DNA of 64,000 bases from an uncultured Verrucomicrobiae bacterium (GTDB lineage: Bacteria; Verrucomicrobiota; Verrucomicrobiia; Chthoniobacterales; Chthoniobacteraceae). Positions within the stretch are counted from its first letter, which is position 1, and the number at the start of each line of letters is the position of its first letter. The DNA lies in NCBI GenBank assembly GCA_963836755.1, contig CAWIKF010000001.1:608001-672000 (forward strand), in the 5' to 3' direction. The translations under genes and the position numbers were made by a program. This document shows positions 7,864 to 48,002 of the stretch, piece by piece. Under the pieces are notes generated by a model. That model saw nothing but the letters and a program-made list of their open reading frames with translations. It searched no databases and was not told where the DNA came from.

Positions 7864-8135
7864 GAAAACTCGGCGTCCCAACGAGAAAACCCGACGTCCG
7901 GTGGAGAAAACTCCACGTCCGATGGAGAAAAGCTGAGGTCCCGCGGGGAATTTCTCACGTCCCGTTGAGAAACTTCACGTCCCGGGGAGAATTTCCCACG
8001 TCCGATGCAGAAGTTTTCACGTCCCGGGGAGAATTTCCCACGTCCGGTGGTGAAGTTTTCACATCCCGAGGAGAAGTTCTGACGTCCCGTGTAGAAGTTT
8101 TCACATCCCGAAGCCATTTCCTCACGTCCCGCCGT
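7864..8135. repeat. Tandem array A: 13 units, 21-bp period, GAA-N6-AC(G/A)TCC-N6
   Basis: Units read directly at 7864, 7885, 7906, 7927, 7948, 7969 (20 bp), 7989, 8010, 8031, 8052, 8073, 8094 and 8115. Confidence 0.92.
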
Positions 8136-8176
8136 CGAAAACGGATGATTTGAGACAAATCTCTCGCGAAATCACC

Positions 8177-8280
8177 GGGAGCGCACGCTTCCAACGTGCA
8201 GTCGCTGGCATCCTGCCGGCGACATCCGCGAAGGATTCGGCAAGGATGCCGAACCCGGCACGCTGGAAGCGCGCGCTCCC
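8177..8280. repeat. REP/REPIN-like long palindrome
   Basis: GGGAGCGCACGCTTCCAACGTGC ... GCACGCTGGAAGCGCGCGCTCCC arms are 21/23 complementary, with inner GGCATCCTGCCG / CGGCAAGGATGCC arms. Confidence 0.8.
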
Positions 8281-8392
8281 GATAAGAGCCGTCCGTCTCA
8301 TCCCAAAAAATCCGTGTCCCATCCGTGGCTGAACCAAATGGAACCCGCACGAATCTCCTTCCCAATGCACCCGGAAACGTCACTCTCCCCAA

Positions 8393-9184
8393 ATGCCTGA
8401 AAACACACCCGCCACCCCAGCCGCTCCCGCCCCGAAAAAACACAAAACCCCCGGCCCCATCGACAGCGGCCTCGTCGCGCAGCTGCGCCTCGACCAGGGG
8501 ATCATCGACTCTGCGCACGACGAGATGAGCACCGACCCCACATTCGTCACCGCCCTCAGCACCCATTTTCTCGACCGCGAAAACACCATCGCCATCACCC
8601 CCGCCAGCCTCGCCACACTTTCCACACAGGCCGGCTCCGCCCTCGCCGCATCCGGCGCGATCACCGCCGCGCAAGCCGCTCTCGACAACGTCACCGACGA
8701 CGAAGGCAACGACGCGAAAACCGCCATCGCCGCCATCCGCGCCGTGCAAGGCGCAGCGAAGGAAAAATACGAAGAAAGCGCCCCCGCGCGGCTCGGCGCC
8801 TACTTCATCGGCCACCGCCTCCACTCCCGCGACGATATCAGCACGGCCGGCACCGCCGCCTACCAGCAATTGCGCACCACCGATGCGAGCGGCAACCCCG
8901 TCACCCCGCAGGACACGCTGCCCGGTTTCACACAACCGCGCATCGATCAGCTCAAGATCGACCTCGGCAGCTACCTCACCATCGAGACCGAGCAAAGCGG
9001 CGCGCAAAAAGATACGACCGATGCGCGCAACGCCTTCGCGAATGACTGCGCGCAAGTCAGCCGCCGCCGCCGCAAACTGCAACTCGCCGTAGATGTCGAG
9101 CGTCCCTACAGCAACCCCGCGAACACCATGTTGCCCGCCTTAACTCATGGTTTTGTCCAAAGGCATCTGGAGGCGGCGGCGTAG
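8393..9184 (+). CDS. Hypothetical, predicted alpha-helical cytoplasmic protein; 3' end possibly replaced
   Basis: 263-aa ORF with strong C-ending codon bias up to about 9127; no signal peptide; no recognised family. Confidence 0.8.
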   Translation: MPENTPATPAAPAPKKHKTPGPIDSGLVAQLRLDQGIIDSAHDEMSTDPTFVTALSTHFLDRENTIAITPASLATLSTQAGSALAASGAITAAQAALDNVTDDEGNDAKTAIAAIRAVQGAAKEKYEESAPARLGAYFIGHRLHSRDDISTAGTAAYQQLRTTDASGNPVTPQDTLPGFTQPRIDQLKIDLGSYLTIETEQSGAQKDTTDARNAFANDCAQVSRRRRKLQLAVDVERPYSNPANTMLPALTHGFVQRHLEAAA

Positions 9185-9592
9185 CGTTATATGCATTTGA
9201 GGACCAATTGTCCTTAAGGCCTATTCCCACGCTTTACAATGTTTAACTTCACACGAGCAGGCCTTAGCTTAGAGAAGGCTGCAAAGATGGCGGCAGCCGG
9301 GGACGAACGCATGACAGCACACCTCGGGAAGGCGGAGCGCATATCTTGAAGTCACGTTTCACGTTTCAGGAGACACTAGCGACGATCTCCTTGTATGAGC
9401 GCGTGCTAGCGGCCGCGCAGAATCTGACTGGCACGATTCCGATTAGGCAGAATTGCGAAGAGATGAAGATGCGTCTGCAAGAATACAGCTCGCAATGGAC
9501 ACAATAAACCTAGCTATCTGGCTGCTCTCCATTGTTATGATCGCCCGTTGGCTACTATCTTTGCCATTGTCGACAAATCCTAGCTCAAGATT

Positions 9593-9883
9593 ATGACTCC
9601 ACGAAACAATCCGGAATTTAAGGTAATCGTCGCTCACTGCGAGGTCTTCCAATTCGCCTGCAACCAAAATTGGGATTTGATGAGACCCATCACAGAAAGA
9701 ATTCGTGTGTGCGAGGAGTGCTCTGAGCGAGTTTATTTTTGCCGCAATGAGACAGAGTTTCGGAAGCACGCTTCCCAGGGCGAGTGTGTTGCTATTGAGA
9801 TCGTTTCTGATGGGCCATCTGTGTCCGAAACAGCGAAGCGCAGAATTCTTGCCGGAATTCCCATCCTACCGAAGTTCGATTGA
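9593..9883 (+). CDS. Small Cys-rich hypothetical protein
   Basis: FQFAC..W..M......R.CEEC...VYFC......HA..GECVAI pattern suggests metal binding; lower-GC island. Confidence 0.65.
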   Translation: MTPRNNPEFKVIVAHCEVFQFACNQNWDLMRPITERIRVCEECSERVYFCRNETEFRKHASQGECVAIEIVSDGPSVSETAKRRILAGIPILPKFD

Positions 9884-9890
9884 TACAATC

Positions 9891-10109
9891 ATGCCTCCCA
9901 AACGCCGATTAACCCGCAAGAACCTTCCTTACATTGCCGATGCTTTTTCGCAGGCGCTCTCGGCCATTAAGGAGCTTGACCATGCCATGTATTTCTATGC
10001 TTCAGAGGATCACCCCATGCGTTTACGAGTTGGGGATCTCTACCGCCGCATTGAGACCCTGCATGCCGAATTCGCAGAAGCTGTCAAACGTAAGGAACAA
10101 CACTTATGA
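9891..10109 (+). CDS. Hypothetical 72-aa protein
   Basis: ATG 7 nt after the previous stop; ends just before an attC-like site. Confidence 0.55.
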   Translation: MPPKRRLTRKNLPYIADAFSQALSAIKELDHAMYFYASEDHPMRLRVGDLYRRIETLHAEFAEAVKRKEQHL

Positions 10110-10122
10110 ATCACAACAACGG

Positions 10123-10182
10123 GCCTAGCCCTGCGATGCAGCTAACAGGCTCTGCTTGTAGCTAATCTTGTTCTCGTTAGGC
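10123..10182 (+). mobile_element. Degenerate integron attC site
   Basis: R'' GCCTAGC, 5 bp, L'' GATGCAGC ... L' GCTAATC, 8 bp, R' GTTAGGC; located between a stop codon and the next ATG. Confidence 0.7.
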
Positions 10183-10196
10183 GCTTTCCACGCACC

Positions 10197-10607
10197 ATGA
10201 GATTCGTTGTGTTAGCCGCGACTTTCTCGCTCCTTCCGGTGATTGCGTTCGCTCAATTCGGAGTCGAGGATACTCGCAATCTCGGCTTTGGATTCCGGTA
10301 TGAGACGCATGCAGAACCAACCAACTCTTCGTTCGAGAGCATCACACATCAGGCTTATCTATACTATGGTGATCGCAAGCTTTGCAATGTCGGCGAGTAT
10401 TCCATCGCTCCTAGCGGTAGATTCGCAATCTATCAAGATGGCCCTTCGGGAACGCTCTTTCTATTTCGTCGCGCTGACGGCAAGATATTCCAGCTTACTC
10501 CTAAGTCCATCGGATTTCCCGAGACGTTTGTATGGCACGAGCGAGTCCACACCGTTGAGGTTCATCTCGAACACATCAAGACCCCGGCGATATTCCAATT
10601 ACCATGA
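10197..10607 (+). CDS. Secreted hypothetical protein (cassette-like)
   Basis: Signal peptide MRFVVLAATFSLLPVIAFA; flanked by attC-like sites. Confidence 0.75.
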   Translation: MRFVVLAATFSLLPVIAFAQFGVEDTRNLGFGFRYETHAEPTNSSFESITHQAYLYYGDRKLCNVGEYSIAPSGRFAIYQDGPSGTLFLFRRADGKIFQLTPKSIGFPETFVWHERVHTVEVHLEHIKTPAIFQLP

Positions 10608-10715
10608 CAAGATGCGCTGCAGCGAACCGGTCCGCACGTCACCTGCTTCGGCCGCCGCCTTTCCACCATTCATTGGCAGGAGCTCCCTCGTAGCTGACCT
10701 TAATTTACATTAGAC
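10604..10715 (+). mobile_element. Eroded attC-like site
   Basis: L''-like GCTGCAGCGAAC (10616), L'-like GTAGCTGACC and R'-like ATTAGAC (10709-10715) 2 nt before the next start; R'' is decayed. Confidence 0.55.
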
Positions 10716-10717
10716 CC

Positions 10718-11191
10718 GTGAAGAAGCTGCTCCTACAGATCGCTGTTTACTTGAGCTTCTTTAGCTTTACTGCTTCTGGGCAAGATTATCTCAAGCGATA
10801 CGATAAGCCGCTAACCTATAAGCAGGCTATCAAAGAGAAGGACATCGATTTTCCTCTCCCTGCATCGAGCCATGATATCTACTATGCGATGTATGGCGAT
10901 TGGCAGGCTTACACGCGGCTGGTGCGTTTTGAGGCGCCGGTGGCGGATTGCGTGAAGCAGGTCGATGCGGTAATTGCGTGGGACGATAAGCTCTACAAAC
11001 GGACTTCCGCATATCATCGCTTCAAAGTCACCCACGTTGATGCGCCTGGCGCTGGATATCTGGATCCGACACCTTGGATTACTCCGGGGACAATCAAACG
11101 TGGATTGTATGCCGGCAAGGAGTCGAGCCACACTCCTGAGATCTGGATCGATCTCGACAGAGGTATCTTTTACTTCAAGGAGTGTGATTAA
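10718..11191 (+). CDS. Secreted hypothetical protein (cassette-like)
   Basis: GTG start; signal peptide MKKLLLQIAVYLSFFSFTASG; atypical codon usage. Confidence 0.75.
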   Translation: MKKLLLQIAVYLSFFSFTASGQDYLKRYDKPLTYKQAIKEKDIDFPLPASSHDIYYAMYGDWQAYTRLVRFEAPVADCVKQVDAVIAWDDKLYKRTSAYHRFKVTHVDAPGAGYLDPTPWITPGTIKRGLYAGKESSHTPEIWIDLDRGIFYFKECD

Positions 11192-11215
11192 ACTTCTGTC
11201 CGCTCCTTTGCAGAG

Positions 11216-12724
11216 CTAGCGCGGTTGTAAGACGACGAAGGAGCGGGTTTTGCCGCGGCAGATGAAGAGGATTTGCTTCGTGCCGGGCGCGAGCGATTGC
11301 ACGATGCGGTTGTAATCTGCCACGGACGTCACCGGCTGGCGCGCGATTTCCTCGATGACGTCGCCTTGCTGCAGCGATTCGGCGGCGGGGGAATTGGGGT
11401 CAATTTCCATGACCATCACCCCGTGCGCATTTGACGGCAGGTCGTTCTCGTGGTCAGGCGGGATTTCGCCCACGTGCAAGCCGGCGAAAACACTTTGCGC
11501 ATCGGCATTCGGCGGCGATGGCGGCGGCGGAGCGGGGAGTGTCGAGGAGGGCGGAGTCGCGGGCGACGAAAGCTGCGGCTGCTGGCGGACTTGCAGGTTT
11601 TGCGGTTGCTCGGCGATCGTGGCGCTGACGGTCTGCTCCGCGCCCGCGCGCAAGAAAGTCACATCAGCTTTGCTGCCGATCGGCACCGCGGCGACGCGCG
11701 CCCGCAGCTCCTGCACGTCGGCGACGGGATGGCCGTTGAGTTTCGTGATGACGTCGCCGCTGGTGATGCCGGCTTTTTCCGCGGGCGAATCGGCGGTGAC
11801 TTGCGCGACGAGCGCGCCCTGGTCGGACGCGAGGCCGAGCTGCTGCGCGAGGTCGGGCGTGAGCGGCTGGATCACGACACCGAGGTAGCCGTGGATGACG
11901 CGGCCGTTTTTCAAGATGCTCTCGAGCGTGCGCTTCGCCACGTTCGCCGGAATCGCGAAGCCGACGCCCTGCCAGCCGCCGGAGCCGGAATAAATGGAGG
12001 AATTGATGCCGATGATTTCGCCGCGCAGGTTCACGAGCGGGCCGCCGGAGTTGCCGGGATTGATCGCCGCGTCGGTCTGGAAAAATTCATTCGCGCTGCC
12101 TTGCATGGTGCGCCGGCCTTTCGCGCTGATGATTCCCTGCGTGACAGTTTCCTCGAGCCCGAACGGATTGCCGACGGCGATCACGCGCGAGCCGACGCGC
12201 ACTTTGTCGGAATCGCCGATCGGCAGCGGCGTGAAGCCGGCGCCCTCGACTTTCAAGACGGCGATGTCGGTATCGGGATCGGCGCCGATGATCTGCGCGG
12301 GCAATTCCTTCCCGTCGCTGAATTGCACGGTCACGGCGTCCACGTCGGCGACGACGTGGTGATTCGTCAAAATGTGGCCTTCCTTTGAAACGATGACTCC
12401 GGAGCCGAGCGACCGCTGCTCGCGCTGCTGCGGAATGCCGCGGAGGCGCCGGTTGAAGAACATGTCGAACGGGTCGATCACGTAGCCCGACGTGACGTGC
12501 TTCGACGCCGTGATGCTGACGACCGACGGGACAACCGCATCGACGAGCTTCGTGTATTCCTCCTCCATCGCCGCGAGAACTTTGACGTCATTGAGATCAA
12601 TTTTGTCGGCGGCGGCCGGCGTGAATTTTTCCGGCTGATGCACGAGCGCGTGCTTTTGATTCCACTGGAAAAGCGCGAGCACGCAGAGCGCGACGAGGAT
12701 GACAAAGATGAGGAAGCGTTTCAT
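11216..12724 (-). CDS. htrA: HtrA/DegP/DegQ-family serine protease with two PDZ domains
   Basis: GSGVIV..GHILTNHHV, DIAVLK and QTDAAINPGNSGGPL catalytic triad motifs; N-terminal anchor. Confidence 0.95.
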   Translation of the reverse strand: MKRFLIFVILVALCVLALFQWNQKHALVHQPEKFTPAAADKIDLNDVKVLAAMEEEYTKLVDAVVPSVVSITASKHVTSGYVIDPFDMFFNRRLRGIPQQREQRSLGSGVIVSKEGHILTNHHVVADVDAVTVQFSDGKELPAQIIGADPDTDIAVLKVEGAGFTPLPIGDSDKVRVGSRVIAVGNPFGLEETVTQGIISAKGRRTMQGSANEFFQTDAAINPGNSGGPLVNLRGEIIGINSSIYSGSGGWQGVGFAIPANVAKRTLESILKNGRVIHGYLGVVIQPLTPDLAQQLGLASDQGALVAQVTADSPAEKAGITSGDVITKLNGHPVADVQELRARVAAVPIGSKADVTFLRAGAEQTVSATIAEQPQNLQVRQQPQLSSPATPPSSTLPAPPPPSPPNADAQSVFAGLHVGEIPPDHENDLPSNAHGVMVMEIDPNSPAAESLQQGDVIEEIARQPVTSVADYNRIVQSLAPGTKQILFICRGKTRSFVVLQPR

Positions 12725-14801
12725 TCAGCTGATTTGCGCGAGCATAAGTTTTTTCTGTTCCGACAATTAAATCGCGGAAGCGTTGGTTTTCGGCGCGATT
12801 TAAATTTGGATCGTCGGCGTAGATCCGCAGCGCCGCCTGCCGCGCGAGCTGCATCAAATCTTGATCGGCGGTGAGGCTGCCGAGCTTGAGCGGCGGCAAT
12901 CCGCTCTGCGCCGTGCCGAGGATGTCGCCCGGCCCGCGCAGCCGCAAATCGGCTTCCGCGATTTTGAAACCATCCGCCGTCTCCTCCAGCGTCCGCAATT
13001 TTTCCACGGCCTCCGCGTTCGCCGCGTCGCTGAGCAAAATGCAATACGACTTGTGCGCGCCGCGCCCGATCCGCCCGCGCAACTGGTGCAACTGCGCGAG
13101 CCCGAAGCGCTCCGCGTTTTCCACGAGCATCAGGTTCGCGTTCGGCACATCGATGCCAACTTCGATCACCGTGGTCGCGATGAGCGCCTTCGTCTCGCCG
13201 CGCCGGAAGCGTTCCATGATCGCCTCTTTTTCCGCCGGCTCGATGCGCCCGTGCAAAAGCTCGCACGGCATCGGCGCGAGCAGCGTGCGCCATTTTTCAA
13301 ACTCGACTGCCGCCGCCTTCGCATCGAGCTTCGCCGACTCGTCGATCAATGGGTAAACGATGTAACACTGCCGTCCCGCGTCGAGCTGCTGCCGGAGAAA
13401 TTTCAACGCATCCGGCAGCTTCGCCGTGTCGCGCACCGCGGTGATGATTTTGCCGCGGCCCGCCGGCATTTCGTCGAGCGTCGAGACATCGAGGTCGCCG
13501 TAAAAAGTCATCGTCAGCGTGCGCGGAATCGGCGTCGCCGTCATCACGAGCACGTCCGGCGCGGCGGCCTGCTCGAGCAAACGCGCGCGCTGCATCACAC
13601 CGAATTTGTGCTGCTCGTCGATCACCGCGAGGCCGAGTCGCGAAAATTTGACGCCCTCGTAAAGCAGCGCATGCGTGCCGATCATGATCTGTGGCTCTCC
13701 GCCGGCCGGCGCGCCATCGAAAAGCGGCAGCGCCGTTTCCTCCTGTCGCGCGCCGGTGCGAAGGGCGACGTTCACGCCGAGCGGCCGCAGCCAGCGGCAA
13801 AAGTTTAAATAATGTTGCTCCGCCAAAATTTGCGTCGGCGCCATCAACGCCGCTTGGAATCCCGCTTCCACCGCGCAAAGCATCGCGGCCAGCGCGACCA
13901 CCGTTTTGCCCGAGCCGACGTCGCCGTGCAGCAAACGGTTCATCGGATGCGGCGCCAAAAGATCGGCGCGAATTTCCCCGATGACGCGCTCCTGCGCGGA
14001 AGTGAGCGCAAACGGCAGCAGCTTCAGAAACTTTGACGCCAGTTCGCCACTGCCCGCATGCGACTCGCCGCGACGCGCGCGATTTTCCGCGCGCTTCGAG
14101 CCGACAAAAAGTTGCATCGCAAAAAATTCCGCGAGCACGAGATGAAGTCGCGCGCGTGCGCGCAGCTCCTCGCTTTCCGGAAAATGAATTTGCTGCAACG
14201 CCTCGCGAAGCGGCATGGAATCAAGCTCCGCAGGCAGCCTCTCCAAAAAGTTTGCGCCACGCGTTGCATCGAGCACGCGAAAAATCGTTTCGCGCAAAGC
14301 CCGCTGAGTCAGCCCTTCCGTCGCGCGATAAATCGGCGTGATCCGCTTGAGGTGAATCGAAACGTCCTCGTCATTTTCCACGATTTCAAACTCCGGATGA
14401 TCGATGCACATTTTTTTCCCGCGCAATTTCGGCCGGCCGAAAACGACAAGCCGCTGCCCGGTCGCGATCATTTTTTGCACGAAGTGCGCATTGAACCAGC
14501 GGCACACCAGCGGCTCGCTGAGCGCGTGCGCTGCCTCTTCCTCGAGCGTGATCTCAAAAAGTTTCTTCCAGCCCGGAAGCCGCTTCACTGCTGTCTTCGC
14601 GACGATTCCGCAGACGCAGACCGGCGTCTCACTTTCCTGCTGCGGAAAGTGATCGAACCGCGTGCGATCCTCGTATCGGCGCGGGAAATGCGTGAGCAAA
14701 TCTTCAACGGTCGCGAGGCCGAAACGCTCGAGCTGCCGCGCGCGCTGCGGCGGAATCCATTCGATTTCCCTGAGCGGAGTTTCGAGCTGCGGCGCAGTCA
14801 T
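12725..14801 (-). CDS. recG: ATP-dependent DNA helicase RecG (apparent +1 frameshift near 12760; uncorrected ORF runs to 12597)
   Basis: MNRLLHGDVGSGKT, DEQHKFG, MTATPIPRTL and QLHQLRGRIGRG motifs; ATG 14801 overlaps the recJ stop. Confidence 0.95.
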
Positions 14802-22133: not shown

Positions 22134-22442
22134 GCGGTGGCAACCGGTCGGCAATTGGTGCCGACGGGACTGAGATTAGCGCCCACCGGAACGGAAATGG
22201 TGACCACCTTTTGGGAATGGTGCCCACCTTTTGGAAATGGTGACCACCTCTTTGAAAATGGTGACCACCTTTTGGAAATGGTGACCACCTTTTTGGAAAT
22301 GGTGACCACCTTTTTGGAAATGGTGACCACCTTTTTGGAAATGGTGACCACCTTTTGGAAAATGGTGCCCACCTTTTTGAAATGGTGACCACCTTTTTGA
22401 AATGGTGACCACCTTTTTGAAATGGTGGCGACTTTTCGCAAC
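22134..22442. repeat. Tandem array B: about 15 units, 20/21-bp period, ATGGTGACCACCTTTT(T)GGAA
   Basis: Three degenerate 21-bp units (22134, 22155, 22176), then near-identical units at 22197-22421 and a final degenerate unit at 22422. Confidence 0.95.
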
Positions 22443-22539
22443 CAGTTTCGGCCGTTTACTCTGTAGACCCGCTGGAAAAAAGGCACAGTCGCCTGAAATC
22501 GCATCGACAGTTCAGAGCTTCCAGAGCAAAAATCCCCCC

Positions 22540-35385: not shown

Positions 35386-35727
<342 letters not shown>

Positions 35728-35786: not shown

Positions 35787-35802
35787 CGTCACAAGCTCCC
35801 GC

Positions 35803-36283: not shown

Positions 36284-37585
36284 ATGCCTTTTCTAGCCGA
36301 GAGTTTTCCCAACCCGAGTCCGTTCATGGTGCTGCCGTTTGTCGCGATGCTCGCGGCGATCGCCATCGCGCCGATCCTCATCAAGCACCACTGGGAGCGG
36401 CATTACCACAAAGTCAGCGTCAGCCTTGGGCTGATCGCACTTTTTTACTACGCGTTCGTCTTGAAAAACTGGGGGCGCATCGGCCACACGGCGTATGAAT
36501 ACGTCAGCTTCATCGCGCTGATCGGCTCACTTTTCATCGTCGCGGGCGGGATTCACATCGTCGTCAAAGGCGAGGCGAAGCCGTGGATGAACTGCGTCTT
36601 CCTTCTCCTCGGCGCCATCATCGCCAACGTCATCGGCACCACCGGCGCATCGATGCTGCTCGTCCGCCCCTGGATTCGGATGAACCGCTACCGCTTCACG
36701 GGCTTCCACACCGTCTTTTTCATCTTCATCGTCAGCAACGTCGGCGGCTGCCTGACCCCGATCGGCGATCCGCCGCTCTTTCTCGGATTTTTGAAAGGCG
36801 TCCCGTTCTGGTGGGTCTTCGAGCATTGCTGGGAGGCGTGGCTGGTGGCCGTCTTTGGAATGCTCGGGATCTTTTATTTGCGCGACCGGACGAACTTCCT
36901 CAAAGCGCCGCGCGCCGTCCGCGAAGCCGAGACCGGCGGCGGCGAGACATGGAAATTCGGCGGCCTCTGGAATCTCGCATTCCTCGCCGTCATCCTCGGC
37001 TCCGTCTTCATCAAAGGCATGCCCGGCCTGCGCGAGGCGATCATGATCGGCGCCGCGGTCGCGTCCTATGTGACCACCGACAAGCGGACGCACAAGGCAA
37101 ACGACTTCAGCTTCGCCCCCATCAAGGAAGTCGCGTGGCTCTTTGTCGGCATCTTCGCCACCATGATGCCCGCGCTCGATTACCTCGAACTGCACGCGGC
37201 CTCGCTCGGGCTCCACAGCGAGATGCAATTCTACTGGCTCACCGGCGCCCTCTCCGGCGTGCTCGATAACGCGCCGACATACCTCACCTTCCTCGCGAGC
37301 GCCTTTGGCGTCGTCGGGCTAAAAATCGACCAGCCCGAGCACATGCAGGAATTCATCATGCACCATGACCATTACCTCGTCGCCATCTCCATCGGCGCGG
37401 TCTTCTTCGGCGCCATGACCTACATTGGCAACGGCCCGAACCTGATGGTAAAATCGATCGCCGAGGCTGCCGGCGCGAAGACACCGAGCTTTTTCGGCTA
37501 TGTCTTCAAATATTCGCTACCGGTGCTCATTCCCTTCTTCTTCATCGTCGGGATTCTCTTCTTTTCGAGCCATCGCATCTTTTAA
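36284..37585 (+). CDS. Putative sodium:proton antiporter / ion transporter superfamily permease
   Basis: IGTTGASMLL, SNVGGCLTPIGDPPL, LDNAPTY and GAMTYIGNGPN motifs. Confidence 0.85.
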   Translation: MPFLAESFPNPSPFMVLPFVAMLAAIAIAPILIKHHWERHYHKVSVSLGLIALFYYAFVLKNWGRIGHTAYEYVSFIALIGSLFIVAGGIHIVVKGEAKPWMNCVFLLLGAIIANVIGTTGASMLLVRPWIRMNRYRFTGFHTVFFIFIVSNVGGCLTPIGDPPLFLGFLKGVPFWWVFEHCWEAWLVAVFGMLGIFYLRDRTNFLKAPRAVREAETGGGETWKFGGLWNLAFLAVILGSVFIKGMPGLREAIMIGAAVASYVTTDKRTHKANDFSFAPIKEVAWLFVGIFATMMPALDYLELHAASLGLHSEMQFYWLTGALSGVLDNAPTYLTFLASAFGVVGLKIDQPEHMQEFIMHHDHYLVAISIGAVFFGAMTYIGNGPNLMVKSIAEAAGAKTPSFFGYVFKYSLPVLIPFFFIVGILFFSSHRIF

Positions 37586-37607
37586 AGTCGCAGCTGGCTG
37601 CAGGCAG

Positions 37608-37952
37608 GTCATCAGAAAGCGCTCTCGCATCGTCGGAAACCGGTCTCACGTCATCGGAAACCGACCTCGCGTCATCGGAAACCGGTCTCGCGTCGTCGGA
37701 AACCGGTCTCGCATCGTCGGAAACCAGTCTCGCATCATCGGAAACCAGTCTCGCATCATCGGAAGCCGGTCTCGCATCGTCGGAAACCGGTCTCGCATCA
37801 TCGGAAACCAGTCTCGCATCGTCGGAAACCGGTCTCGCATCATCAGAAACCGGTCCCGCGTCATCGGAAACCCCTCTGATGCCATCGGAAATCACTTTCA
37901 GGCTATCGCAAACCGCTTTAAGCTCATCGGAGACCAAATCCGCCATCGGAAA
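37608..37952. repeat. Tandem array C: 16 units in exact 21-bp register, (A/G)TC(A/G)TCGGAAACC(G/A)GTCTCGC, plus one off-register unit
   Basis: Units every 21 bp from 37608 to 37923; the last four are degenerate; a final GCCATCGGAAAC lies just before ATG 37955. Confidence 0.95.
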
Positions 37953-37954
37953 CA

Positions 37955-38311
37955 ATGACTCACGTAACTACATCAGAGGGAAAGCTGGTTGTGGAAGTTC
38001 AGGGCTGGGACAAGCTTTGGGCGTTCAAAGGCCGCCTGGAGATCCCGCTCGAGCATGTCAGCGGGATCCGCGCCGCCGAAAACGAGCGCGTGCGAGGGAT
38101 CAAGGCTCCTGGCACTTACATTCCTGGCGTCATCACTGCGGGCACGTTTCACCGGGTCGGCAGCAAAGTTTTTTGGGACGTGCACGATCATGCCCGCGCT
38201 ATCGCGATTGACTTGCGCGACGATCGGTATGCCGCGTTGATCGTCGAAGTCGCGGATCCAGAAGCGACGATCCGCGAGATCGAGAGAGCGATCGCGCCGG
38301 TCAGTGCCTGA
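37955..38311 (+). CDS. Hypothetical protein (possible PH-like fold)
   Basis: 118 aa with LEIPLEHV, RGIKAPGTYIPG..AGTF, FWDV and LIVEVADP, which looks like a conserved small family. Confidence 0.75.
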   Translation: MTHVTTSEGKLVVEVQGWDKLWAFKGRLEIPLEHVSGIRAAENERVRGIKAPGTYIPGVITAGTFHRVGSKVFWDVHDHARAIAIDLRDDRYAALIVEVADPEATIREIERAIAPVSA

Positions 38312-38330
38312 AAAAGCGGTCAGGCAGCGA

Positions 38331-38693: not shown

Positions 38694-38795
38694 CCGAGGG
38701 GGCGGATTTTGACGCGCAACGCGCGACTTTTTCCGCATGGTTCTGATTCACCCGCAACTACATCCAAAACCGGCCTGAGAATAGTTTTAATGGCA

Positions 38796-39110: not shown

Positions 39111-39113
39111 CAA

Positions 39114-39920
39114 GTGCGCATCTCGCTTTTCACGGCGGTTATTTTTTGCGCTACCATGGCTTCCGCCAAAGTCGTCGTGAAACCGGTGACCTATGACGAG
39201 GGTGGAAAAAAGCTCGAGAGCCAGCTGGTTTACGATGACAGCGCGACGAATGGCGTGAAGCGGCCGGGCGTGCTGGTTTTTCCGGAATGGTGGGGGCTGA
39301 ACGATTTTGCGAAAAGCCGCGCGCAGGAGCTGGCGCAGATGGGTTACGTCGCGCTCGCGGTCGATATGTATGGCAACGGTCAGGCGACTACCGATGCGAA
39401 GCAGGCAAAAGATTGGGCCGGGCCATTGATGAGCGATAAACCGGCGATGGCGCGGCGCGCGCAGGCGGCGCTCACGCAATTGCTAAACACGAAGCTGGTC
39501 AACCCGCGACAGGTGGCGGCGATCGGTTTTTGCTTCGGCGGCACTTGCAGTCAGGAGCTGGCTTACAGCGGCGCACCGATCGCGGCGGTGGTCAGTTTTC
39601 ACGGCGGGCTCGTGACGCCGAGCGCGGATCAAGTGAAGCAGACTCACGCGAAATTCCTGATGCTCAACGGCGCGGTGGACCCGACCGTGAAGCAGGACGC
39701 GGTCAAGGATTTCATGCAGGCGCTCGACGCGGGAAAGATCGATTACGAGTTCATCAACTACGCCGGCGCGCGCCACGCCTTCACAAATCCCGATGCGGAC
39801 AAACTCGGCGCGGCCAACGGAATGTCGGCAGTGGTCGGCTACAACGAAATCGCCGCGCGCCGCTCGTGGGCGCAGATGAAAATGTTCTTCGACGAGATTT
39901 TCGGCAGGCGCAGCAGCTAA
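39114..39920 (+). CDS. Dienelactone hydrolase family protein (secreted)
   Basis: PEWWGLN, GFCFGG, SFHGGL and HAFTNP motifs. Confidence 0.9.
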   Translation: MRISLFTAVIFCATMASAKVVVKPVTYDEGGKKLESQLVYDDSATNGVKRPGVLVFPEWWGLNDFAKSRAQELAQMGYVALAVDMYGNGQATTDAKQAKDWAGPLMSDKPAMARRAQAALTQLLNTKLVNPRQVAAIGFCFGGTCSQELAYSGAPIAAVVSFHGGLVTPSADQVKQTHAKFLMLNGAVDPTVKQDAVKDFMQALDAGKIDYEFINYAGARHAFTNPDADKLGAANGMSAVVGYNEIAARRSWAQMKMFFDEIFGRRSS

Positions 39921-41080: not shown

Positions 41081-41168
41081 AGAGGAGTGACGTTTTCTAT
41101 CGCGCGAGGCCGTGCGCCGCCAGCGATTTTCTCGCCGCGGCTCTGCAGCGATCGGACGAAAAAAATCA

Positions 41169-41196
41169 TTGCAAGCCGCGCAGTCATCGCTACAGT
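41169..41196 (+). promoter_or_regulatory. sigma70-like promoter of rpsN
   Basis: TTGCAA-16-TACAGT, 13 nt before the ATG. Confidence 0.55.
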
Positions 41197-41209
41197 TCCC
41201 GCCTTCGCT

Positions 41210-41479
41210 ATGGCAAAAACGAGTTGGATCGAACGAGAAAAACGCAAACGCGCGACGGTGACAAAGTTCGCCGCGCTCCGTGCTGAACTGAAGGCAAAGA
41301 AGGATTACATCGGTCTCTCGCAGCTGCCGCGCAATGCCAGCCCGACGCGTGTGACCAATCGCTGCCAGACGAGCGGCCGTCGCCGTGGCTTCATGCGCCG
41401 CTTCAAGCTTTCCCGCATCGCGTTCCGTGAGCTGGCTTCCAACGGGATGATCCCGGGGGTGACAAAGTCGAGCTGGTAG
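41210..41479 (+). CDS. rpsN: 30S ribosomal protein S14 (89-aa, non-zinc type)
   Basis: [10 protein letters not shown]...[38 protein letters not shown]. Confidence 0.95.
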
Positions 41480-41540
41480 CCGTCCCGGCGCCGCTCTTCA
41501 GCTCCGCCGCGATTCGCTGCGGACGCTTTGTCTTTTGCCA

Positions 41541-42929: not shown

Positions 42930-42962
42930 CGCCACGCGAAGGCTGCGGATAGCATCGCCGGC

Positions 42963-44792
42963 TTGAACGCGGAAGCTTTCATCACGTGGGCGCTCGATTC
43001 ATCCCGCTCCACCGAGGAGCGCTACACGACGCTGCTGCTCGTCGAGCGCGGTGTCGATTTTTGGAACAGCCATCATAACACCGGCGTTTATCGAAACTGG
43101 TGCCAGCAAAGCGAGGAACAGCGCCAGCGTCGACTGAATCCCGCCTTTGATCCACGCTACTCGGAGGAGGACCTTGTGCGCGCGTGCGAGATGCTTCCAA
43201 AAATCAATACGTGGTATCACCACGGATACAGTCAGCGGCCGCTCCGCGACTTGACGGCCTTCGGATTCCTCACGGAAATGGAAAGCATGGGCATCAACAA
43301 CAGCGAAGTCACTGATCTCACGCCGCTGGCGAGGATCACTGCGCTTCACACGTTGGATTTTAGTAGCGCGTTTTGCGATGACTTCAGCCCGCTTGCGCGC
43401 TGCCTGGGCTTGCGCAATCTCAATCTTTCCATCGGTGTGCGATGGCCGGATGTCACCGGCCTCGAAGCACTGGAGGAGATCGAAACGCTCTCGCTCGTCG
43501 GCAATCTGCTCGCCTTCGCGCCCGGCGTGGCATGGCCCAACGTCCGGCGCGGCACGCTCGTGTGCAGTCCGCTTTGCGCGCGCAATGTCGATGCGCTCCC
43601 TTTTTTTCCACGGTGCGAATTCCTAACGCTCGCGGGCGTGGATCGTCTCGACGGCATCGAACGCTACGCACCGCGCCTGCGCAACCTCACGCTCACTGGC
43701 CCCGTTCGCAGCCTTGCGCCGCTCGCATCCTTGTCAAAACTGACCTGGCTTTCCTATGGGGGCGACCGTCCGCGCGACGTCTCACCGCTGGCGCGTCTGC
43801 CGCAGCTTCACGCCGTGATTTTCAGCGCCTCACCTGATTTCCAGCATCCCGCGAAGCCGCGCGATTACTGCCCGCTGGCAGCCGCGCCCGCCTTGCGGGA
43901 ACTCACCGTCCTCGGTTGTCCGCCCGTGGAAATGGAAGTCGCCGCCCTCAAGGCCGGCCTTCCGCCCTGCGATGATCTCTGGCTCGCGGAGTCGCCACGC
44001 TCCATCCCACCGCTGCGGTTCATTGTCGCTCCCACGAACAAAGCACCTCGGCGCGCCTCGCACCATCGCGCACCAGGCGAGCCGGATTTGGCCGATACCG
44101 GCGTCCGCACTTGCGAAGGCCTCTGGGTGAAGGACTACGCCGCCCGCATCGTTCGCGAACGTCTCGGCCATGACGAATGGGGCACCGTCACCGCCAATGG
44201 CGAGTTTCGCACCGTCATGGCCACCGTTGAGTCTTTCGACATCGTGGAAAAATTCCGCGAAATCGTCGAGGCCATCCGCTTCGTGCTCGCCAGCCTCCGG
44301 CACGACTATCATGCAAGCGTCATGATCGCCCTCCGCGTCCCGCCGCCCAAGGCGACTCCCGCGCAGCAACAACTCGAGGAACAATTTCGAAACGCCCAGG
44401 ACCGTGCCGACTTTGAGCAGCGCCAGCGCGACGATGCCGAGTATCTGGAAAAACTTCACCTCCACGAGCTCGCGCAGCAGGAGGGCGATCCCGTCAAACC
44501 CGAGGAATATGCCCCCGCCGACCCCGAGCCACCGCTCGTGCCTCCATGGGAACAAGAAGACGACGAGGAGGAAGATGACAGTCACAGCGGAGACATCGGC
44601 ATCGCCATTAAAAAGAAACCTGACCCTCCGCCATCCTGGTCCGACGACGAACATCCGCTCGCCGATAACTACCGCCTTCTGGCCACCCTCACTTTGGGCG
44701 AGCTATGGTGCCTCCCGCACCAACGCGACATCGCCCTCTATCTCATGCACCGCGCCCCCGACGAGGAAATCCCCGAGGAGCCAAAGCCTTAG
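42963..44792 (+). CDS. Leucine-rich-repeat protein with acidic C-terminal region
   Basis: Repeated L.PLA.L..L..L.L units (internalin-like LRR); TTG start. Confidence 0.75.
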   Translation: MNAEAFITWALDSSRSTEERYTTLLLVERGVDFWNSHHNTGVYRNWCQQSEEQRQRRLNPAFDPRYSEEDLVRACEMLPKINTWYHHGYSQRPLRDLTAFGFLTEMESMGINNSEVTDLTPLARITALHTLDFSSAFCDDFSPLARCLGLRNLNLSIGVRWPDVTGLEALEEIETLSLVGNLLAFAPGVAWPNVRRGTLVCSPLCARNVDALPFFPRCEFLTLAGVDRLDGIERYAPRLRNLTLTGPVRSLAPLASLSKLTWLSYGGDRPRDVSPLARLPQLHAVIFSASPDFQHPAKPRDYCPLAAAPALRELTVLGCPPVEMEVAALKAGLPPCDDLWLAESPRSIPPLRFIVAPTNKAPRRASHHRAPGEPDLADTGVRTCEGLWVKDYAARIVRERLGHDEWGTVTANGEFRTVMATVESFDIVEKFREIVEAIRFVLASLRHDYHASVMIALRVPPPKATPAQQQLEEQFRNAQDRADFEQRQRDDAEYLEKLHLHELAQQEGDPVKPEEYAPADPEPPLVPPWEQEDDEEEDDSHSGDIGIAIKKKPDPPPSWSDDEHPLADNYRLLATLTLGELWCLPHQRDIALYLMHRAPDEEIPEEPKP

Positions 44793-44986
44793 CGCAACGT
44801 TGGCGTAAGCTCCAGGACAAGCACTATCGCGGCAAGCGCGAGTAGAAGGGGATCGCCGCGACGGATAATTGTCTCACCGATACTCATAACGCATTGAGCA
44901 TGCGACAACGCAACGCCTGAACGCTGCCAGTCATATTCCAGCTTTGGCAGGAGAAAGCGAAGCCTAACGAAGCTAGGTCGTCGGAT

Positions 44987-45418
44987 TCATCGCAAATCTT
45001 GAGCTGAAACAGCAATTTCTCCTAAGTAGTTGCCGGCGGTATCACGGTAAACGTAATGCATCTCAACACCGTGGTCACGAAAACTGGCAAGTTGCGGACT
45101 AGTCTTATAACTGTTCACTACTGTCGGGCGTAATGCCTTGATGAGACCTTCTACATTGACTCCTTTGAATAAGACACCAGAAACCGTGTAGAGATACGTG
45201 AATCGCTTTCCTGGACCTGGCGATGTCGAATCGAGCCGCGTATATTTGTCGACTTGCATTGGTAGCTTCGCGTTGAGTTGCGATGATGTCTCCACGAGCG
45301 CACGATCAAAGGCTGTCTCGCGCTGGTGATCGAAATACGACTGCACTGCTACCTTGCCAATGACTATCCCAACTATGCCCGCGACTAATTTCACGCAACC
45401 AGATAGCCGAGCTTTCAT
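44987..45418 (-). CDS. Hypothetical membrane-anchored protein (cassette-like)
   Basis: N-terminal TM; LP.QVD..TRLDS motif; atypical codon usage. Confidence 0.7.
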   Translation of the reverse strand: MKARLSGCVKLVAGIVGIVIGKVAVQSYFDHQRETAFDRALVETSSQLNAKLPMQVDKYTRLDSTSPGPGKRFTYLYTVSGVLFKGVNVEGLIKALRPTVVNSYKTSPQLASFRDHGVEMHYVYRDTAGNYLGEIAVSAQDLR

Positions 45419-45438
45419 GTTAGCTGCATCGCATGGTT
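45419..45438 (-). mobile_element. Left-half attC remnant
   Basis: Minus strand AACCATGCGATGCAGCTAAC shares TGCGATGCAGCTAAC with the attC-like site at 10123-10182. Confidence 0.55.
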
Positions 45439-45496
45439 GCGCGCGTCATGCCTGGACTGCAGCCGCTCCCGCGGACTTTTAGTGACCATCCGTGCT

Positions 45497-46540
45497 TTAC
45501 CACGAAGAAGTCATGAACGTTGCCGGTGCAGGCCACCTGGCCTTGTTCTCCTCGGAAGCTGCAAAGATCGCTTGCTTGGCCGTGAGTGCTTTGACCAAGG
45601 CCTCAAACTCCGCCCCACTTCCGGACATCTCCACCTTCCACTCGTCATCCTTTTCATCGGGAGCGGCTGGCATCTTTCGGGCATGGAGCTTCACGGCCCC
45701 GGACTCTGTCGAGATCAGTTGGAACTCAGTCGTTGCCCCTTCGACGTCCGGCAATTTCTTGGGCATTGCAAACGAGACAAGGGTGTGACGGAGAACGTCC
45801 TCATAAGTCTGCGTGCGCCACTCCTTCGAAAGAAGAGCCATGCCGCGTCTTCCCGACATTTCTACAATATCGAATGAAAGATTCCGATCGCCCTCGTAGA
45901 ACGTGGATGTGAGTAGCGAGCGTTCCCAACTGGTAAAACGCCTTTGCTGGAGAGAATAGGTCACTCGGAGATTTCCCATGTCAAAGATAAGCCTCGCAGG
46001 CGAGCCAGCCAGGCTGAGATCAAAATCCACACAGTGACCCTCGTGAATACGGATCAGATCGTTGGACTGCAATCCCGCCACATGGCCGGCCTTGATTTCG
46101 TTCGCTGCGAATTCATTGTCTGCCAGATTCCGATAATTACCATTTTTGCCCCGTTCGAACGCTTCTCCATATCCTCCGGAGCTGATGTGGTATTCGAGCA
46201 CGATATAGCGCGCATCATCGCTGATCGCCGCGTTCGTGATATAAGTCGCCGGCATCGCGAGAAAGGTTCTCTTTCCGGTTTTTCGATTGAGGATCCATGC
46301 CTCAGCCGGCTCGTGCACAACATCCGTATCTCCACGAAGCTCCACGATGATGTCTCCATTCTTGGACGCAACCTTGCTGAAAAGTTTTAGAGTCAGAGTA
46401 GGATCCGGCTCCGATTGCCCCGCTCCGGCAGGCATGGCCGCCACGAGGAATGCTACAACAAAAAGCACCACCGTGCCGGCAAAGCCGCGTGGCATACTCC
46501 ACGGGCCCGTGCCGACTTCCATCGCATTGCTAGGTCTCAT
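45497..46540 (-). CDS. Secreted hypothetical protein
   Basis: 347-aa ORF with a signal-like hydrophobic stretch near the N-terminus; start may be downstream. Confidence 0.65.
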   Translation of the reverse strand: MRPSNAMEVGTGPWSMPRGFAGTVVLFVVAFLVAAMPAGAGQSEPDPTLTLKLFSKVASKNGDIIVELRGDTDVVHEPAEAWILNRKTGKRTFLAMPATYITNAAISDDARYIVLEYHISSGGYGEAFERGKNGNYRNLADNEFAANEIKAGHVAGLQSNDLIRIHEGHCVDFDLSLAGSPARLIFDMGNLRVTYSLQQRRFTSWERSLLTSTFYEGDRNLSFDIVEMSGRRGMALLSKEWRTQTYEDVLRHTLVSFAMPKKLPDVEGATTEFQLISTESGAVKLHARKMPAAPDEKDDEWKVEMSGSGAEFEALVKALTAKQAIFAASEENKARWPAPATFMTSSW

Positions 46541-46915
46541 GTTTGGAGATGAGTTTCCAGACGGAAGTCCGTGCGACCCTTCTTAATGAATGGGAAAAGG
46601 TTCGTTCCATAAACATCCGTCAAGGAAACGCCGAAGTTGGTTTCGAGCAGACTGATAAGATTCCGGTTGGTAGGTAAGCTTCTCGTGTAGCCGTAGGTGA
46701 CGCAATCCATGTCGAGGGGACCACGCAGCGAAAGATCAGAACTCCAGTCCTGAAGCATTACCATTATTCAGCATTAACATTCCCAGCAGTCTTTGTGTAG
46801 GGTGAGACATAGGGACATTCATAAGCACCATCATGGTAATCTCCGATGCCCTTGTAACCGGGCCACTTGGTTCGCTGCCGCTTCCTAGTTTTTTTAATTG
46901 TAGTCGTTTATCCAT
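46537..46915 (-). pseudogene. Frameshifted, truncated remnant of a uracil-DNA-glycosylase-like gene
   Basis: Three frames join as MDKRLQLKKL / KRQRTKWPGYKGIGDYHDGAYECPYVSPYTKTAGNVNAE / IMVMLQDWSS...PTNRNL..LL..FG...VYGTNLFPFIK. Confidence 0.55.
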
Positions 46916-46953
46916 AAGTGCGTGAGGCACAGGCCTAGCAAGAAAAGCCCTCT

Positions 46954-47643
46954 CTACCCGCCGACCGTGATGCTCACCGGCTTACTCCAGACGCCGACCT
47001 GCGCGTCGCCGACGATGTAGATGCCGCGATAGGTCCACTTCGTGGGCGTGGCGGGCAGGGGGGTGGTGTCGGTGTAGCCGGCGGTGGTGTCGTTGGCTAG
47101 GAAGATGAAACCTTTGCCGTCGCGATCGACTTCGAGGCGGATCATATCGAGGAATTTGCTGTTCCCACCCCAGCCCCAGTCGAGGAAAACGGTGTTGCCT
47201 TTGAGGATGGCTTTAAAGTCTGGCTGGATGGTGGACAGATCGGGGCCGGTTTGCTCGGCGCCTTCCAGGCCAAGGATGATGCCAATGGCGGGAGTGTAGT
47301 TTTTGTGAGTCTTGATGGCATTTGCCAGCGCGAGGAAGCGGGTGAGGATGCCGGCGGGCACCGAGGGAGGGAAGGCAGCGTGCTTCACGGGGATGGCCGG
47401 TTCCGTGCCGCTTTGGCCCGAGAGAGCGAGGCCTTTCCAAGCTGTCCACTGCGGCCCGGCGGAGCCCATGGTTTTGGCAAAGGTGAGAAGTTCGCGGTAA
47501 TAGGTTGCATCGGCGGCCTGCTGGGTGACGTCGGCTGCCGCGAGATTGAAAAGGGCGACGTAGCCACCGATGTTGTCGCGGAATTGCTCGAATTCGGTCG
47601 CTTTGCCGTCTTCGGTGTCGGAGAGGAAGTAATGTTTGGGCAT
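46954..47643 (-). CDS. Hypothetical cytoplasmic protein: helical N-domain plus C-terminal Ig/FN3-like domain
   Basis: 229 aa, no signal peptide; the C-terminal LDW...YTD...WTYRGIY..GD..VG.WS.PVSITV pattern resembles an FN3 beta-sandwich. Confidence 0.8.
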   Translation of the reverse strand: MPKHYFLSDTEDGKATEFEQFRDNIGGYVALFNLAAADVTQQAADATYYRELLTFAKTMGSAGPQWTAWKGLALSGQSGTEPAIPVKHAAFPPSVPAGILTRFLALANAIKTHKNYTPAIGIILGLEGAEQTGPDLSTIQPDFKAILKGNTVFLDWGWGGNSKFLDMIRLEVDRDGKGFIFLANDTTAGYTDTTPLPATPTKWTYRGIYIVGDAQVGVWSKPVSITVGG

Positions 47644-47771
47644 AATTTAGGGTGTTCTGTTTTGTTCACTGCGGGTTTCTACCCGGGAAAAGCGGCCCCG
47701 CTGAGCGTATGCCAGCGAACAAAAGACGGTTTTCCAGAGTAAAGTGGTGTTTTTCCCCGTTCAAAGCCCGC

Positions 47772-48002
47772 TCCTTGGAGGTTCCAAGGATGACTGGTGA
47801 CGTTCCACGCACGTCCGTGGAGGTTCCAAGGAGATGCGTGCAGGTTCCATGGACATCCTTGGGACCTCCAGGAACATCCATGGGAACCGCCAGGAAGTCC
47901 GTGCAGGTCCCCCGCACGTCCGCGGACGTTGGAAAACTGCCCGTGGAAGTTCGAAGAATGCCTTGGCAAGCTCCAAGGACGTCCTTGGAGAATGGAAGGA
48001 GC
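47772..48002. repeat. Tandem array D: 11 units, 21-bp period, palindromic consensus TCC(T/G)TGGA-GGT-TCCA(A/C)GGA-NN
   Basis: Units at 47772, 47793, 47814, 47835, 47856, 47877, 47898, 47919, 47940, 47961 and 47982. Confidence 0.88.

Follow-up and report, generated by a model that had tools for sequence, protein, structure and literature searches.

Direct repeats spaced by about two turns of the helix, next to an IHF site, are well known from plasmid iterons such as those of the R6K gamma ori, pSC101 and P1, and in the type III toxin-antitoxin loci ToxIN, CptIN and TenpIN a tandem array immediately precedes one small gene. REP/BIME/RIP and the Rickettsia palindromic elements are palindromic, multicopy and able to enter genes in frame, RIP holding an IHF site, and the cyanobacterial STRR/SDR are heptamer-type repeats. 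According to the parts of PMC4679880 available to us, the TAACTGA heptamer repeats of Beggiatoaceae, Cyanobacteria and Bacteroidetes occur as tandem sets, many of them in intergenic DNA close to start codons and some within ORFs; a regulatory role is proposed there and their spread is left unexplained. In slipped-strand phase variation, as treated in the accessible portion of PMC3711429, a repeat unit that is not a multiple of three turns a frame on and off, and an upstream stop close to a downstream start is taken as a mark of translational coupling.

The window analysed here, a stretch of 64,000 nucleotides from a Chthoniobacterales-like genome of 3.2 Mb, contains four arrays, which belong to one genome-wide class of ~21-bp tandem repeats:

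7864..8135, + strand: array A, 13 x 21 bp (one unit of 20), palindromic GAGAA/TTCTC and ACGT cores
22134..22442, + strand: array B (solo), units of either 20 or 21 bp, palindromic core GGTGACCACC, leuA on one side and a GH2 gene on the other
22455..22466, + strand: cap motif TTTACTCTGTAG at the end of array B (motif search), likely an IHF-type site
37609..37952 (start previously given as 37608), + strand: array C (solo), 16 x 21 bp, core GAAACCGGTCTC
47734..47743, - strand: cap motif TTTACTCTGG between array D and the 46954 gene (motif search)
47772..48002, - strand: array D, 11 degenerate 21-bp units, with the 46954 gene 135 bp downstream of it

TRF confirmed the four arrays, recovering A at 7864-8131 (period 21/42), B at 22193-22427 (20/41), C at 37609-37936 (21) and D at 47802-47896 (21, weak), and register alignment rendered 13 units with one 1-bp loss in A, 16 in C and 11 in D. 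The preliminary description had ascribed period 21 to all of them, which holds for A, C and D but not for B, whose mean is 20.5 bp because 6 of its 11 counted units are of 20 bp and 5 of 21 bp. That their consensus sequences differ is correct: the six pairwise similarities (0.36-0.46) match the column-permuted null (0.37-0.44), so that A, B, C and D are unrelated in sequence. Each is made of head-to-tail variants of one consensus, not of the constant repeat and unique spacers of CRISPR/TIGR loci, and among the joints listed for the contigs of three DNA runs none skips array C or D. Array A has a second copy at C1:273.7 kb (89% identity over 636 bp, flanks included). The solo arrays B and C each resemble a gene-linked array at another site, with hardly any or no flanking sequence in common: B the one at C1:228.7 kb (71% identity) and C one on C4 (89%, no flank in common).

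An autocorrelation scan of the whole genome (match fraction >=0.6, 126-bp windows) confirmed an excess of period 21, with 52 regions at lag 21 and 47 at lag 42, 8 at lag 41 and 3 at lag 20, and, over lags 4 to 89, at most 2 at any lag that is not in the 20/21, 40-43, 61-64 or 82-85 group; at the loosest cut (0.5), 74 regions were found at lag 21 versus up to 17 at other lags. No sub-period of 7, 10, 11 or 14 bp was detected, autocorrelation being 0.24-0.25 at lags 7 and 14 versus 0.60-0.62 at lag 21. Nine arrays of this genome have 41-bp units and spacings of 20, 41 and 43 also occur, a tolerance (41-43 bp) which fits that of the helix. Seven of the 76 detector regions were recognised as ordinary repeats within coding sequence and removed (two CheR coiled coils, Gly-, His- and Gln-rich tracts, ahcY and the pnp tail), leaving about 69 arrays; with gene calls from a crude in-house caller, 25 are gene-linked and 44 solo, array a58 being counted as gene-linked in the strand-skew/codon, open-frame and palindrome/RNA-stability counts and as solo in later ones. 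They represent many unrelated sequence families, of 10-17 head-to-tail units, with no tetranucleotide common to every unit. A palindromic excess (z>0) was found in 55 of 66 arrays of this genome and in 54 of 57 related arrays, and polar growth of the CRISPR style was not seen (13/20, 28/50).

The 25 gene-linked arrays are located directly 5' of small unannotated genes encoding helical-rod proteins with or without an FN3 domain, including those next to A and D:

8393..9184, + strand: 263-aa helical-rod protein, C-terminus altered with respect to its paralogue and likely truncated
46954..47643, - strand: 229-aa protein with a helical N-terminal part (11-124) and a C-terminal FN3 fold (AlphaFold pLDDT 93.5)

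Co-occurrence with homologues of these two proteins is found for the 25 arrays as a set, A and D included, but not for B, C and the other solo copies, which have no adjacent gene of the family. At 80 GTDB loci of 46954 homologues, which are kin (L068 and L071 look identical), the best upstream repeat period was 21, 42, 43 or 63 in 50 of the 69 with enough flank, and such a period was found downstream in 0 of 76. Seven of 10 family matches not used as queries, most of them fragments, had no nearby array. A metagenome scan for the 8393 family rendered at least 9 loci; 2 of the 7 examined have arrays, including both full-length matches. The 8393 protein has 39 homologue clusters and the 46954 protein 359.

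No Pfam or PADLOC family matches the 8393 protein. Its family is modelled as a long three-helix bundle (pLDDT 89.7) with invariant basic residues R220, R221 and R223, and a fold search with the rod gave no match that was specific, the best one (Z 9.4, rmsd 4.7, 118 aligned) having values common for helical bundles. The C-terminal domain of the 46954 protein matches FN3 (Z 11.3, rmsd 2.2, 90 aligned); this protein has no evident signal peptide, and a single query of viral contigs found no relative. The linked proteins are mostly acidic (pI <7 in 19 of 22), and fold searches matched no nucleic-acid-binding fold. They are similar to DUF6261 (PF19775) proteins in size and helical character but differ in that none of the 17 family proteins scanned matches PF19775; an Atlas cluster with 32% DUF6261 members scores 0.88 for an 8393 homologue, which is a lead only. 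Close paralogues carry unrelated arrays, the similarities of protein and array being weakly correlated (rho 0.18). Copying of an array from its own gene was ruled out (local score 22.8 versus 21.3).

The cap motif adjoins 19 of the 69 arrays, 0.23 being expected, and beyond this genus it adjoins an array at 1 of 57 loci. It partially matches the IHF consensus, and a role as an IHF site is likely; two HU/IHF-family genes are present in this genome. The plain IHF consensus was not enriched near arrays (0/24), no convincing relation was found between the phase of the motif and that of the units, and several copies lie, by eye, beside tRNA/tmRNA-like ends. The motif was discarded as the end of a mobile element, and it is not element-specific.

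Two of the arrays lie in inserts with respect to related genomes:

7744..11215, unstranded: insert between rng and degP with array A, the 8393 gene and small cassette-like ORFs, empty in the same-genus genome G002
8177..8280 (end approximate), unstranded: REP-like inverted-repeat element between array A and the 8393 gene
10122..10182, + strand: integron attC-like site (attC scan), a degenerate second one starting at ~10601
42930..48291, unstranded: insert between corC and panE with an LRR gene, two cassette-like genes, the 46954 gene and array D, empty in G001 and G002

Compared with G002, all four synteny breaks at 1-51 kb of the window carry an array and the conserved junctions there carry none: in G002 rng adjoins degP and corC adjoins panE (the latter pair also in G001), and different genes follow leuA and the CitMHS gene. 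The proposal that the arrays mark core/accessory junctions is thus borne out in the window; genome-wide the rule is looser, since five arrays lie in frame inside core genes (ispG, alaS, nrdJ, acrB and leuS). The ispG insert is absent in 29 relatives. A 16-mer of the REP-like element at 8177 has 5 copies in the genome, 3 of them within alaS. An attC half-site lies near 45414, within the corC-panE insert, and the position scored as attC at 39383 seems not to be a true site. The suggestion that the arrays are a scar of gene acquisition was half right: the arrays themselves move, but the small neighbouring genes appear, from the attC sites, to be integron cassettes. A common cause for the arrays is supported by the period excess, by the linkage to 8393 and 46954 homologues and by the location in inserts.

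Frames open across the arrays on the strand of the gene are frequent, and in the window they are the following:

37500..37958, + strand: open frame across array C, its stop overlapping, as ATGA, the start codon of the following gene at 37955
47666..48139, - strand: leader frame across array D with a GTG start, its stop ~25 nt before the gene
48107-47679, - strand: second frame across array D with an ATG start (frame scan)

Such a frame is present in 58 of 59 related arrays (44.7±2.8 in permuted arrays; opposite strand 42 versus 38.9) and in 22 of 26 arrays of this genome (16.4±1.9; opposite strand 16 versus 15.7), the depletion of stops being modest compared with dinucleotide shuffles (143 versus 166±10; 76 versus 102±7). 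At arrays A and B no frame stays open toward the next gene (across A there is none on the + strand), and 2 of 18 arrays before intact genes likewise lack one. Promoter-like sequences were noticed by eye between array and gene at several loci, where the array would be absent from the mRNA; a promoter scan found none at D. In the relatives, a microsatellite precedes the array at 14 of 69 loci, versus 0 of 76 downstream and 0 of 59 further upstream; the 14 tracts have 8- or 14-bp units, and at 5 of these loci the array is under the score cut. An ATG lies 12-53 nt before the tract at 12 of the 14, the remaining two being at contig ends, and at 11 of 12 loci one length class of the tract reads across to the region of the gene start. 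The nearest off-frame stop lies 1-10 nt past the tract (10 loci tested further), versus a shuffled median of 20-30. The length of the microsatellite appears to set, in the relatives, whether the gene-strand frame crosses the array. This layout, a perfect short repeat within a frame and with a unit not divisible by 3, was found in relatives only, no array of this genome being adjoined by such a switch. Compared with the systems in the accessible portion of PMC3711429, the tracts differ in that they sit in a disposable leader frame with no evident task other than crossing the phased array.

The arrays share with plasmid iterons the direct repeats of about 21-22 bp in helical phase next to a gene and a likely IHF site at one end, but their units are palindromic and unrelated between loci, they exist in dozens of chromosomal copies, solo copies enter coding loops, and the gene belongs to no Rep or winged-helix family: searches of Pfam and NCBIfam found no Rep family among the linked proteins, whose models are helical plus FN3 or three-helix rods. 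As in type III toxin-antitoxin loci, the array lies directly 5' of one small gene; the unit is shorter, array and protein are weakly coupled, many arrays are gene-less, and no toxin RNase family or fold was matched, Pfam and PADLOC yielding no ToxN/CptN/TenpN-type endoribonuclease and the 46954 C-terminal domain being FN3. With REP/BIME/RIP and the Rickettsia palindromic elements they have in common palindromy, high copy number, in-frame occurrence in genes and a RAYT gene in the genome, but they form dozens of unrelated families, the linked gene is not a transposase, and no one conserved REP sequence both flanks RAYT and is common to the copies. In contrast to the TAACTGA heptamers, one fixed 7-bp sequence in the parts of PMC4679880 available to us, the arrays keep a period and not a sequence, have no 7-bp sub-period and are linked to one gene family. 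A search of openly accessible papers found no published description of the arrays, of their mobility or of the microsatellite switch. The arrays are likely to be an undescribed on/off control element, and are compatible with putative phased DNA sites, as had been proposed.

The reading that we favour, to which we give somewhat less than an even chance, is that the arrays serve as control leaders, phased and translated, which in addition spread on their own. A candidate protein would bind the palindromes, which recur in phase at every second turn of the DNA, and the downstream gene would be switched on when a ribosome reads through the array. The 21 bp may be retained because no shorter unit comprises a whole number of codons and also of helical turns; phase and frame would then survive the gain, loss or rewriting of units. 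At the array end, the cap motif could be the site at which a host IHF-like protein bends the DNA. The downstream rod protein, with helices of 55-57 residues, about one unit long, is the putative binder and would read spacing more than sequence; by binding its own array, it would repress itself. An untranslated leader might silence the gene via polarity or loss of coupling, and solo arrays could arise when recombination copies an array without its gene, and could persist at sites where they do no harm. It is also possible, though unlikely, that this is a geometry-defined module, in which the rod protein would polymerise at two-turn steps on a self-rewriting palindrome array, ribosome passage would toggle it (microsatellite-set in some lineages), and the same complex would place copies of the array alone at further sites, among them loops of essential proteins.

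Alternatively, array and rod gene could together form a minimal mobile element that a host enzyme moves, the array providing the signal for recognition or replication, solo arrays being non-autonomous copies and regulation incidental. This is doubtful, yet the leading one among the alternatives. In its favour, 44 copies are solo, families B and C have gene-linked partners, five core genes have taken in-frame inserts, the same leuS loop holds an unrelated 42-bp array in G002, the modules lie within inserts, and the genome encodes a RAYT-type Y1 transposase (2 PF01797 matches, the nearest array 2.7 kb from the intact gene). However, the family copies compared showed neither common termini nor target duplications, the cap motif is not element-specific, close paralogues carry unrelated arrays with a weak correlation between protein and array, and the microsatellite switch is left unexplained. 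Nor was a reverse transcriptase found in the 96%-complete genome (no PF00078 match), the enzyme on which a telomerase-like or DRT-type synthesis of the repeats would depend. Neutral minisatellites, produced by a replication or repair quirk favouring 21-bp duplication of hairpin-prone DNA and piling up in dispensable places, would account for the 7-bp and 23-bp repeats in the leuS loop of relatives and for the co-occurrence with REP-like repeats and attC sites (an attC-like site within 3 kb of 9 of the 25 gene-linked arrays, versus 15% of large intergenic gaps); the strict one-sided linkage to a gene family (50/69 versus 0/76) largely contradicts them, the strand-specific open frames and the microsatellite layout also speak against them, and they are very improbable.

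An RNA element, in which the transcribed array would fold into long inter-unit duplexes or tandem hairpins and act by attenuation, through small RNAs or as a type III-like antitoxin binding the protein, agrees with the array-before-gene layout, with the RNA of the gene strand, which in 55 of 57 related arrays exceeds column-permuted controls in stability, and with C>G on that strand in 51 of 59; moreover, ribosome transit would unfold the array RNA. It is quite unlikely: the opposite strand is the more stable in 47 of 57, the gene-linked arrays of this genome have no strand skew (14/26), Rfam has no match on any of arrays A, B, C and D, and array and protein are weakly coupled. The structured RNA suggested previously is not a general property: D folds strongly (z -5.5) and C (z 0.1) no better than shuffles. 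As for the heptad micro-ORFs also suggested, arrays that are small genes whose peptides pair with a helical protein would explain the open frames, the equality of 21 bp with 7 codons and the regular heptads of some frames. In the microsatellite-defined frame, however, the three codon positions carry mismatches equally (211/220/215), with no elevated share of synonymous ones (0.29 versus 0.22 and 0.36), no codon phase signal is present in 78 arrays, and 41- and 43-bp arrays exist; the lack of a codon pattern together with the tolerance of 41-43 bp indicates that no peptide is conserved, and this explanation is the least probable of all, even though translation through the array seems to matter.

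If the favoured reading is true, the arrays would be a cis element with a conserved period and a sequence turnover faster than that of the linked protein, in about 70 copies in a 3.2-Mb genome, and able to insert heptad loops into IspG, AlaRS, NrdJ, an RND pump and LeuRS. The arrays also mark gathering places of integron cassettes, and the microsatellite layout offers a cheap direct test of frame, phase and binder for a large unannotated protein family.

The four tandem repeats of the window, arrays A (7864-8135), B (22134-22442), C (37609-37952) and D (47772-48002), were each detected by TRF where the preliminary description had placed them. The common period of 21 bp proposed for them was found in A, C and D, with 13 (one 1-bp loss), 16 and 11 units in register, respectively, but not in B, in which units of 20 and 21 bp are mixed; their consensus sequences do differ, profile likeness being no greater than between permuted columns. 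The predicted excess of period 21 was observed throughout the source genome (3.18 Mb in 4 contigs, the window being C1:608001-672000; closest named homologues from Chthoniobacterales), where autocorrelation (lags 4-89, cut 0.6) gave 52 regions at lag 21, against at most 2 at unrelated lags, and 47, 8 and 3 regions at lags 42, 41 and 20 of the 21 series. Merging of lags gave 76 regions and, with seven removed as ordinary coding repeats, 69 arrays of 72-389 bp, which split into many unrelated sequence families and in which no sub-period of 7, 10, 11 or 14 was found.

Twenty-five arrays precede small genes without annotation, or remnants of such genes, by 66-453 bp (18 of the 25 genes intact), and 44 are solo arrays. 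Pfam recognised fn3 in two of the linked genes and nothing else, and NCBIfam and PADLOC searches named no family. The model of 46954, the minus-strand gene linked to array D, comprises helices and an FN3 domain (pLDDT 93.5; FN3 match with Z 11.3, rmsd 2.2, 90 aligned), and the family of 8393, the plus-strand gene linked to array A, is predicted to form a long three-helix rod, for which a fold search gave no specific match. Several subfamilies lack detectable sequence similarity to each other; we infer a single superfamily because they occur in the same context and are linked stepwise by weak similarities. Because most genes here were chosen for adjoining arrays, the independent test of the pairing lies in other genomes. 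There, the suggested co-occurrence with 46954 homologues was found: among 80 GTDB loci, the best repeat had a period of 21, 42, 43 or 63 in 50 of 69 upstream and 0 of 76 downstream regions with enough flank, and in a search confined to those lags, 59 of the 72 loci having 300 bp of flank or more passed. Of ten further family matches in the source genome, three have an array beside them and seven, mostly fragments, do not. Array and protein similarity are loosely coupled (rho 0.18), and unrelated arrays occur beside close paralogues. In many 46954 homologues (P0018, P0028, P0035, P0040, P0052, P0071) the N-terminus is extended by ~55-60 residues, ahead of the usual start, and this extension contains paired W/F-D motifs. 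Upstream of each of three large paralogues, which begin with MKYKQSF and by eye resemble autotransporters, a different array is found, and two of the three have a divergent family gene and a common AAATC.TAACACTAAA site; their loci are:
C1:228.5-229.5 kb (L006), MKYKQSF gene
C2:1903.6-1904.3 kb, MKYKQSF gene
C2:708.6-709.2 kb, MKYKQSF gene

Units were more palindromic than column-permuted controls in 55 of 66 own and 54 of 57 related arrays, the average unit having a single core that turns from A-rich to T-rich. The spacing may also be 20, 41 or 43, a tolerance in keeping with helical phase and not with codons. The short motif TTACTCTG, with 31 copies in the genome, lies beside 19 of the 69 unrelated arrays (0.23 expected), usually oriented away from its array; we take it to be a likely host IHF-type site. 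Its 12-base form is present in 17 of the 24 genomes from the same family (few matches with a reversed control). Within the genus, 11 of 12 loci have the motif next to an array, upstream in 9 and downstream in 2; this holds for 1 of 57 other loci, in which it is often near tRNA- or tmRNA-like ends. No enrichment of the plain IHF consensus was seen near arrays; one HU-like and one IHF-like protein are encoded in the genome. In genome G008 (L161-L180) a short AAACAAAGCC-type repeat, spaced at 10/11 bp and centred on the TTTACTCTGTWG of this motif, is present in many copies.

An open frame on the gene strand crosses 58 of 59 related (44.7 expected) and 22 of 26 own arrays (16.4 expected), an effect that is smaller against dinucleotide shuffles; the opposite strand shows no excess. 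Leader frames end 25-38 nt before the gene of array D, and that of array C has a stop codon overlapping the ATG of the next gene; none was found for A and B. Upstream, 14 of 69 relatives' loci have perfect 8- or 14-bp tracts; none of 76 downstream regions and none of 59 more distant upstream regions has one, and no such tract adjoins an array in the source genome. These loci are related, two look identical and five have weak arrays. An ATG just precedes the tract in 12 of the 14, in 11 of which one length class stays open through the array region as far as the start of the gene; an alternative frame ends within 10 nt (10 loci tested). Two loci are currently 'on', and several have an upstream TTGAC promoter-like word (by eye). 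These loci have the arrangement that slipped-strand phase variation through translational coupling would be expected to show (PMC3711429).

Heptad micro-ORFs, among the functions first suggested, would also give open frames, but unit variation has no codon phase and therefore points to no conserved peptide; a heptad peptide is the most improbable reading. Little more credit is due to a neutral minisatellite. An RNA element, also suggested before, is rather unlikely: array D folds well (z -5.5), but array C does not (z 0.1), the antisense strand of related arrays is usually more stable than the gene strand, and an Rfam search over the arrays gave no match. A selfish cassette is somewhat less unlikely. 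A small SRP RNA gene lies at window 60414-60508.

The arrays were said to mark core/accessory junctions, and those of the window do: rng directly abuts degP in G002 and corC abuts panE in G001 and G002 (relatives, G002 of the same genus), which places A in an insert of 3.5 kb and D in one of 5.4 kb, and the genes after leuA and CitMHS differ in G002. ATCCGTG-type short repeats flank array A (7787-7863, 8310-8332) and recur at its paralogous locus. With attC-like sites in both inserts and an integrase in the genome, the neighbouring small genes look like integron cassettes:
C2:765056-766015 of the source genome (G000), integron integrase, single copy
A 41-bp array and a family gene directly follow the integrase. 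The scan gave 92 attC-like half or whole sites (9 in a reversed control), which are scattered over the genome in about 25 clusters. One lies within 3 kb of 9 of 25 gene-linked and 6 of 44 solo arrays, the background being 7% for the genome as a whole and 15% for large intergenic gaps. Arrays move: C matches a gene-linked array on C4 at 89% identity, flanks not being shared, and B matches one at C1:228.7 kb at 71%. Five genes, identified by their sequence, contain an array in frame: ispG, alaS, nrdJ, leuS and one of acrB type. The array in ispG belongs to the family of a gene-linked array, and 29 relatives, two of them with a short IspG, lack it at the corresponding loop. The leuS loop before GGVDLY has ~5-20 residues in most of 30 loci (L239-L268, source genome included), but in G002 it holds an unrelated array of 42-bp period, and in others repeats of 7 and 23 bp; across the family this loop accepts many unrelated inserts of 5 to 163 residues (7-, 21-, 23-, 42-bp repeats). 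Besides its 21-bp array, alaS (L002, C1:58953-62516) contains, likewise in frame, several inserts of REP-like sequence and a segment resembling a RAYT/Y1 transposase. No shared ends or target duplications were seen among array copies, nor a reverse transcriptase in the 96%-complete source genome, which has two RAYT-type matches; spread may have been by recombinational copying.

By membership tests the arrays belong to none of iterons, type III toxin-antitoxin, CRISPR/TIGR, STRR or REP. A literature search found no description of such arrays, the nearest case being a fixed heptamer repeat (PMC4679880).

The reading that we tentatively prefer, at somewhat below even probability, is that each array is a phased operator with an IHF-type bend as its cap and doubles as a translated leader. 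Parts of it are at odds with the mostly acidic character of the linked proteins and with sequences resembling promoters that lie between array and gene at some loci. No unit shorter than 21 bp comprises whole numbers of both codons (seven) and B-DNA turns (two). The arrays would work like iteron arrays that have an IHF site and are coupled to a phase-variable leader: operator sites in helical phase would be bound, the rod protein being the likeliest binder, and the bend would cap the array end. The array would also be translated, so that ribosome passage would set expression of the gene, and a leader left untranslated would presumably shut the gene off.
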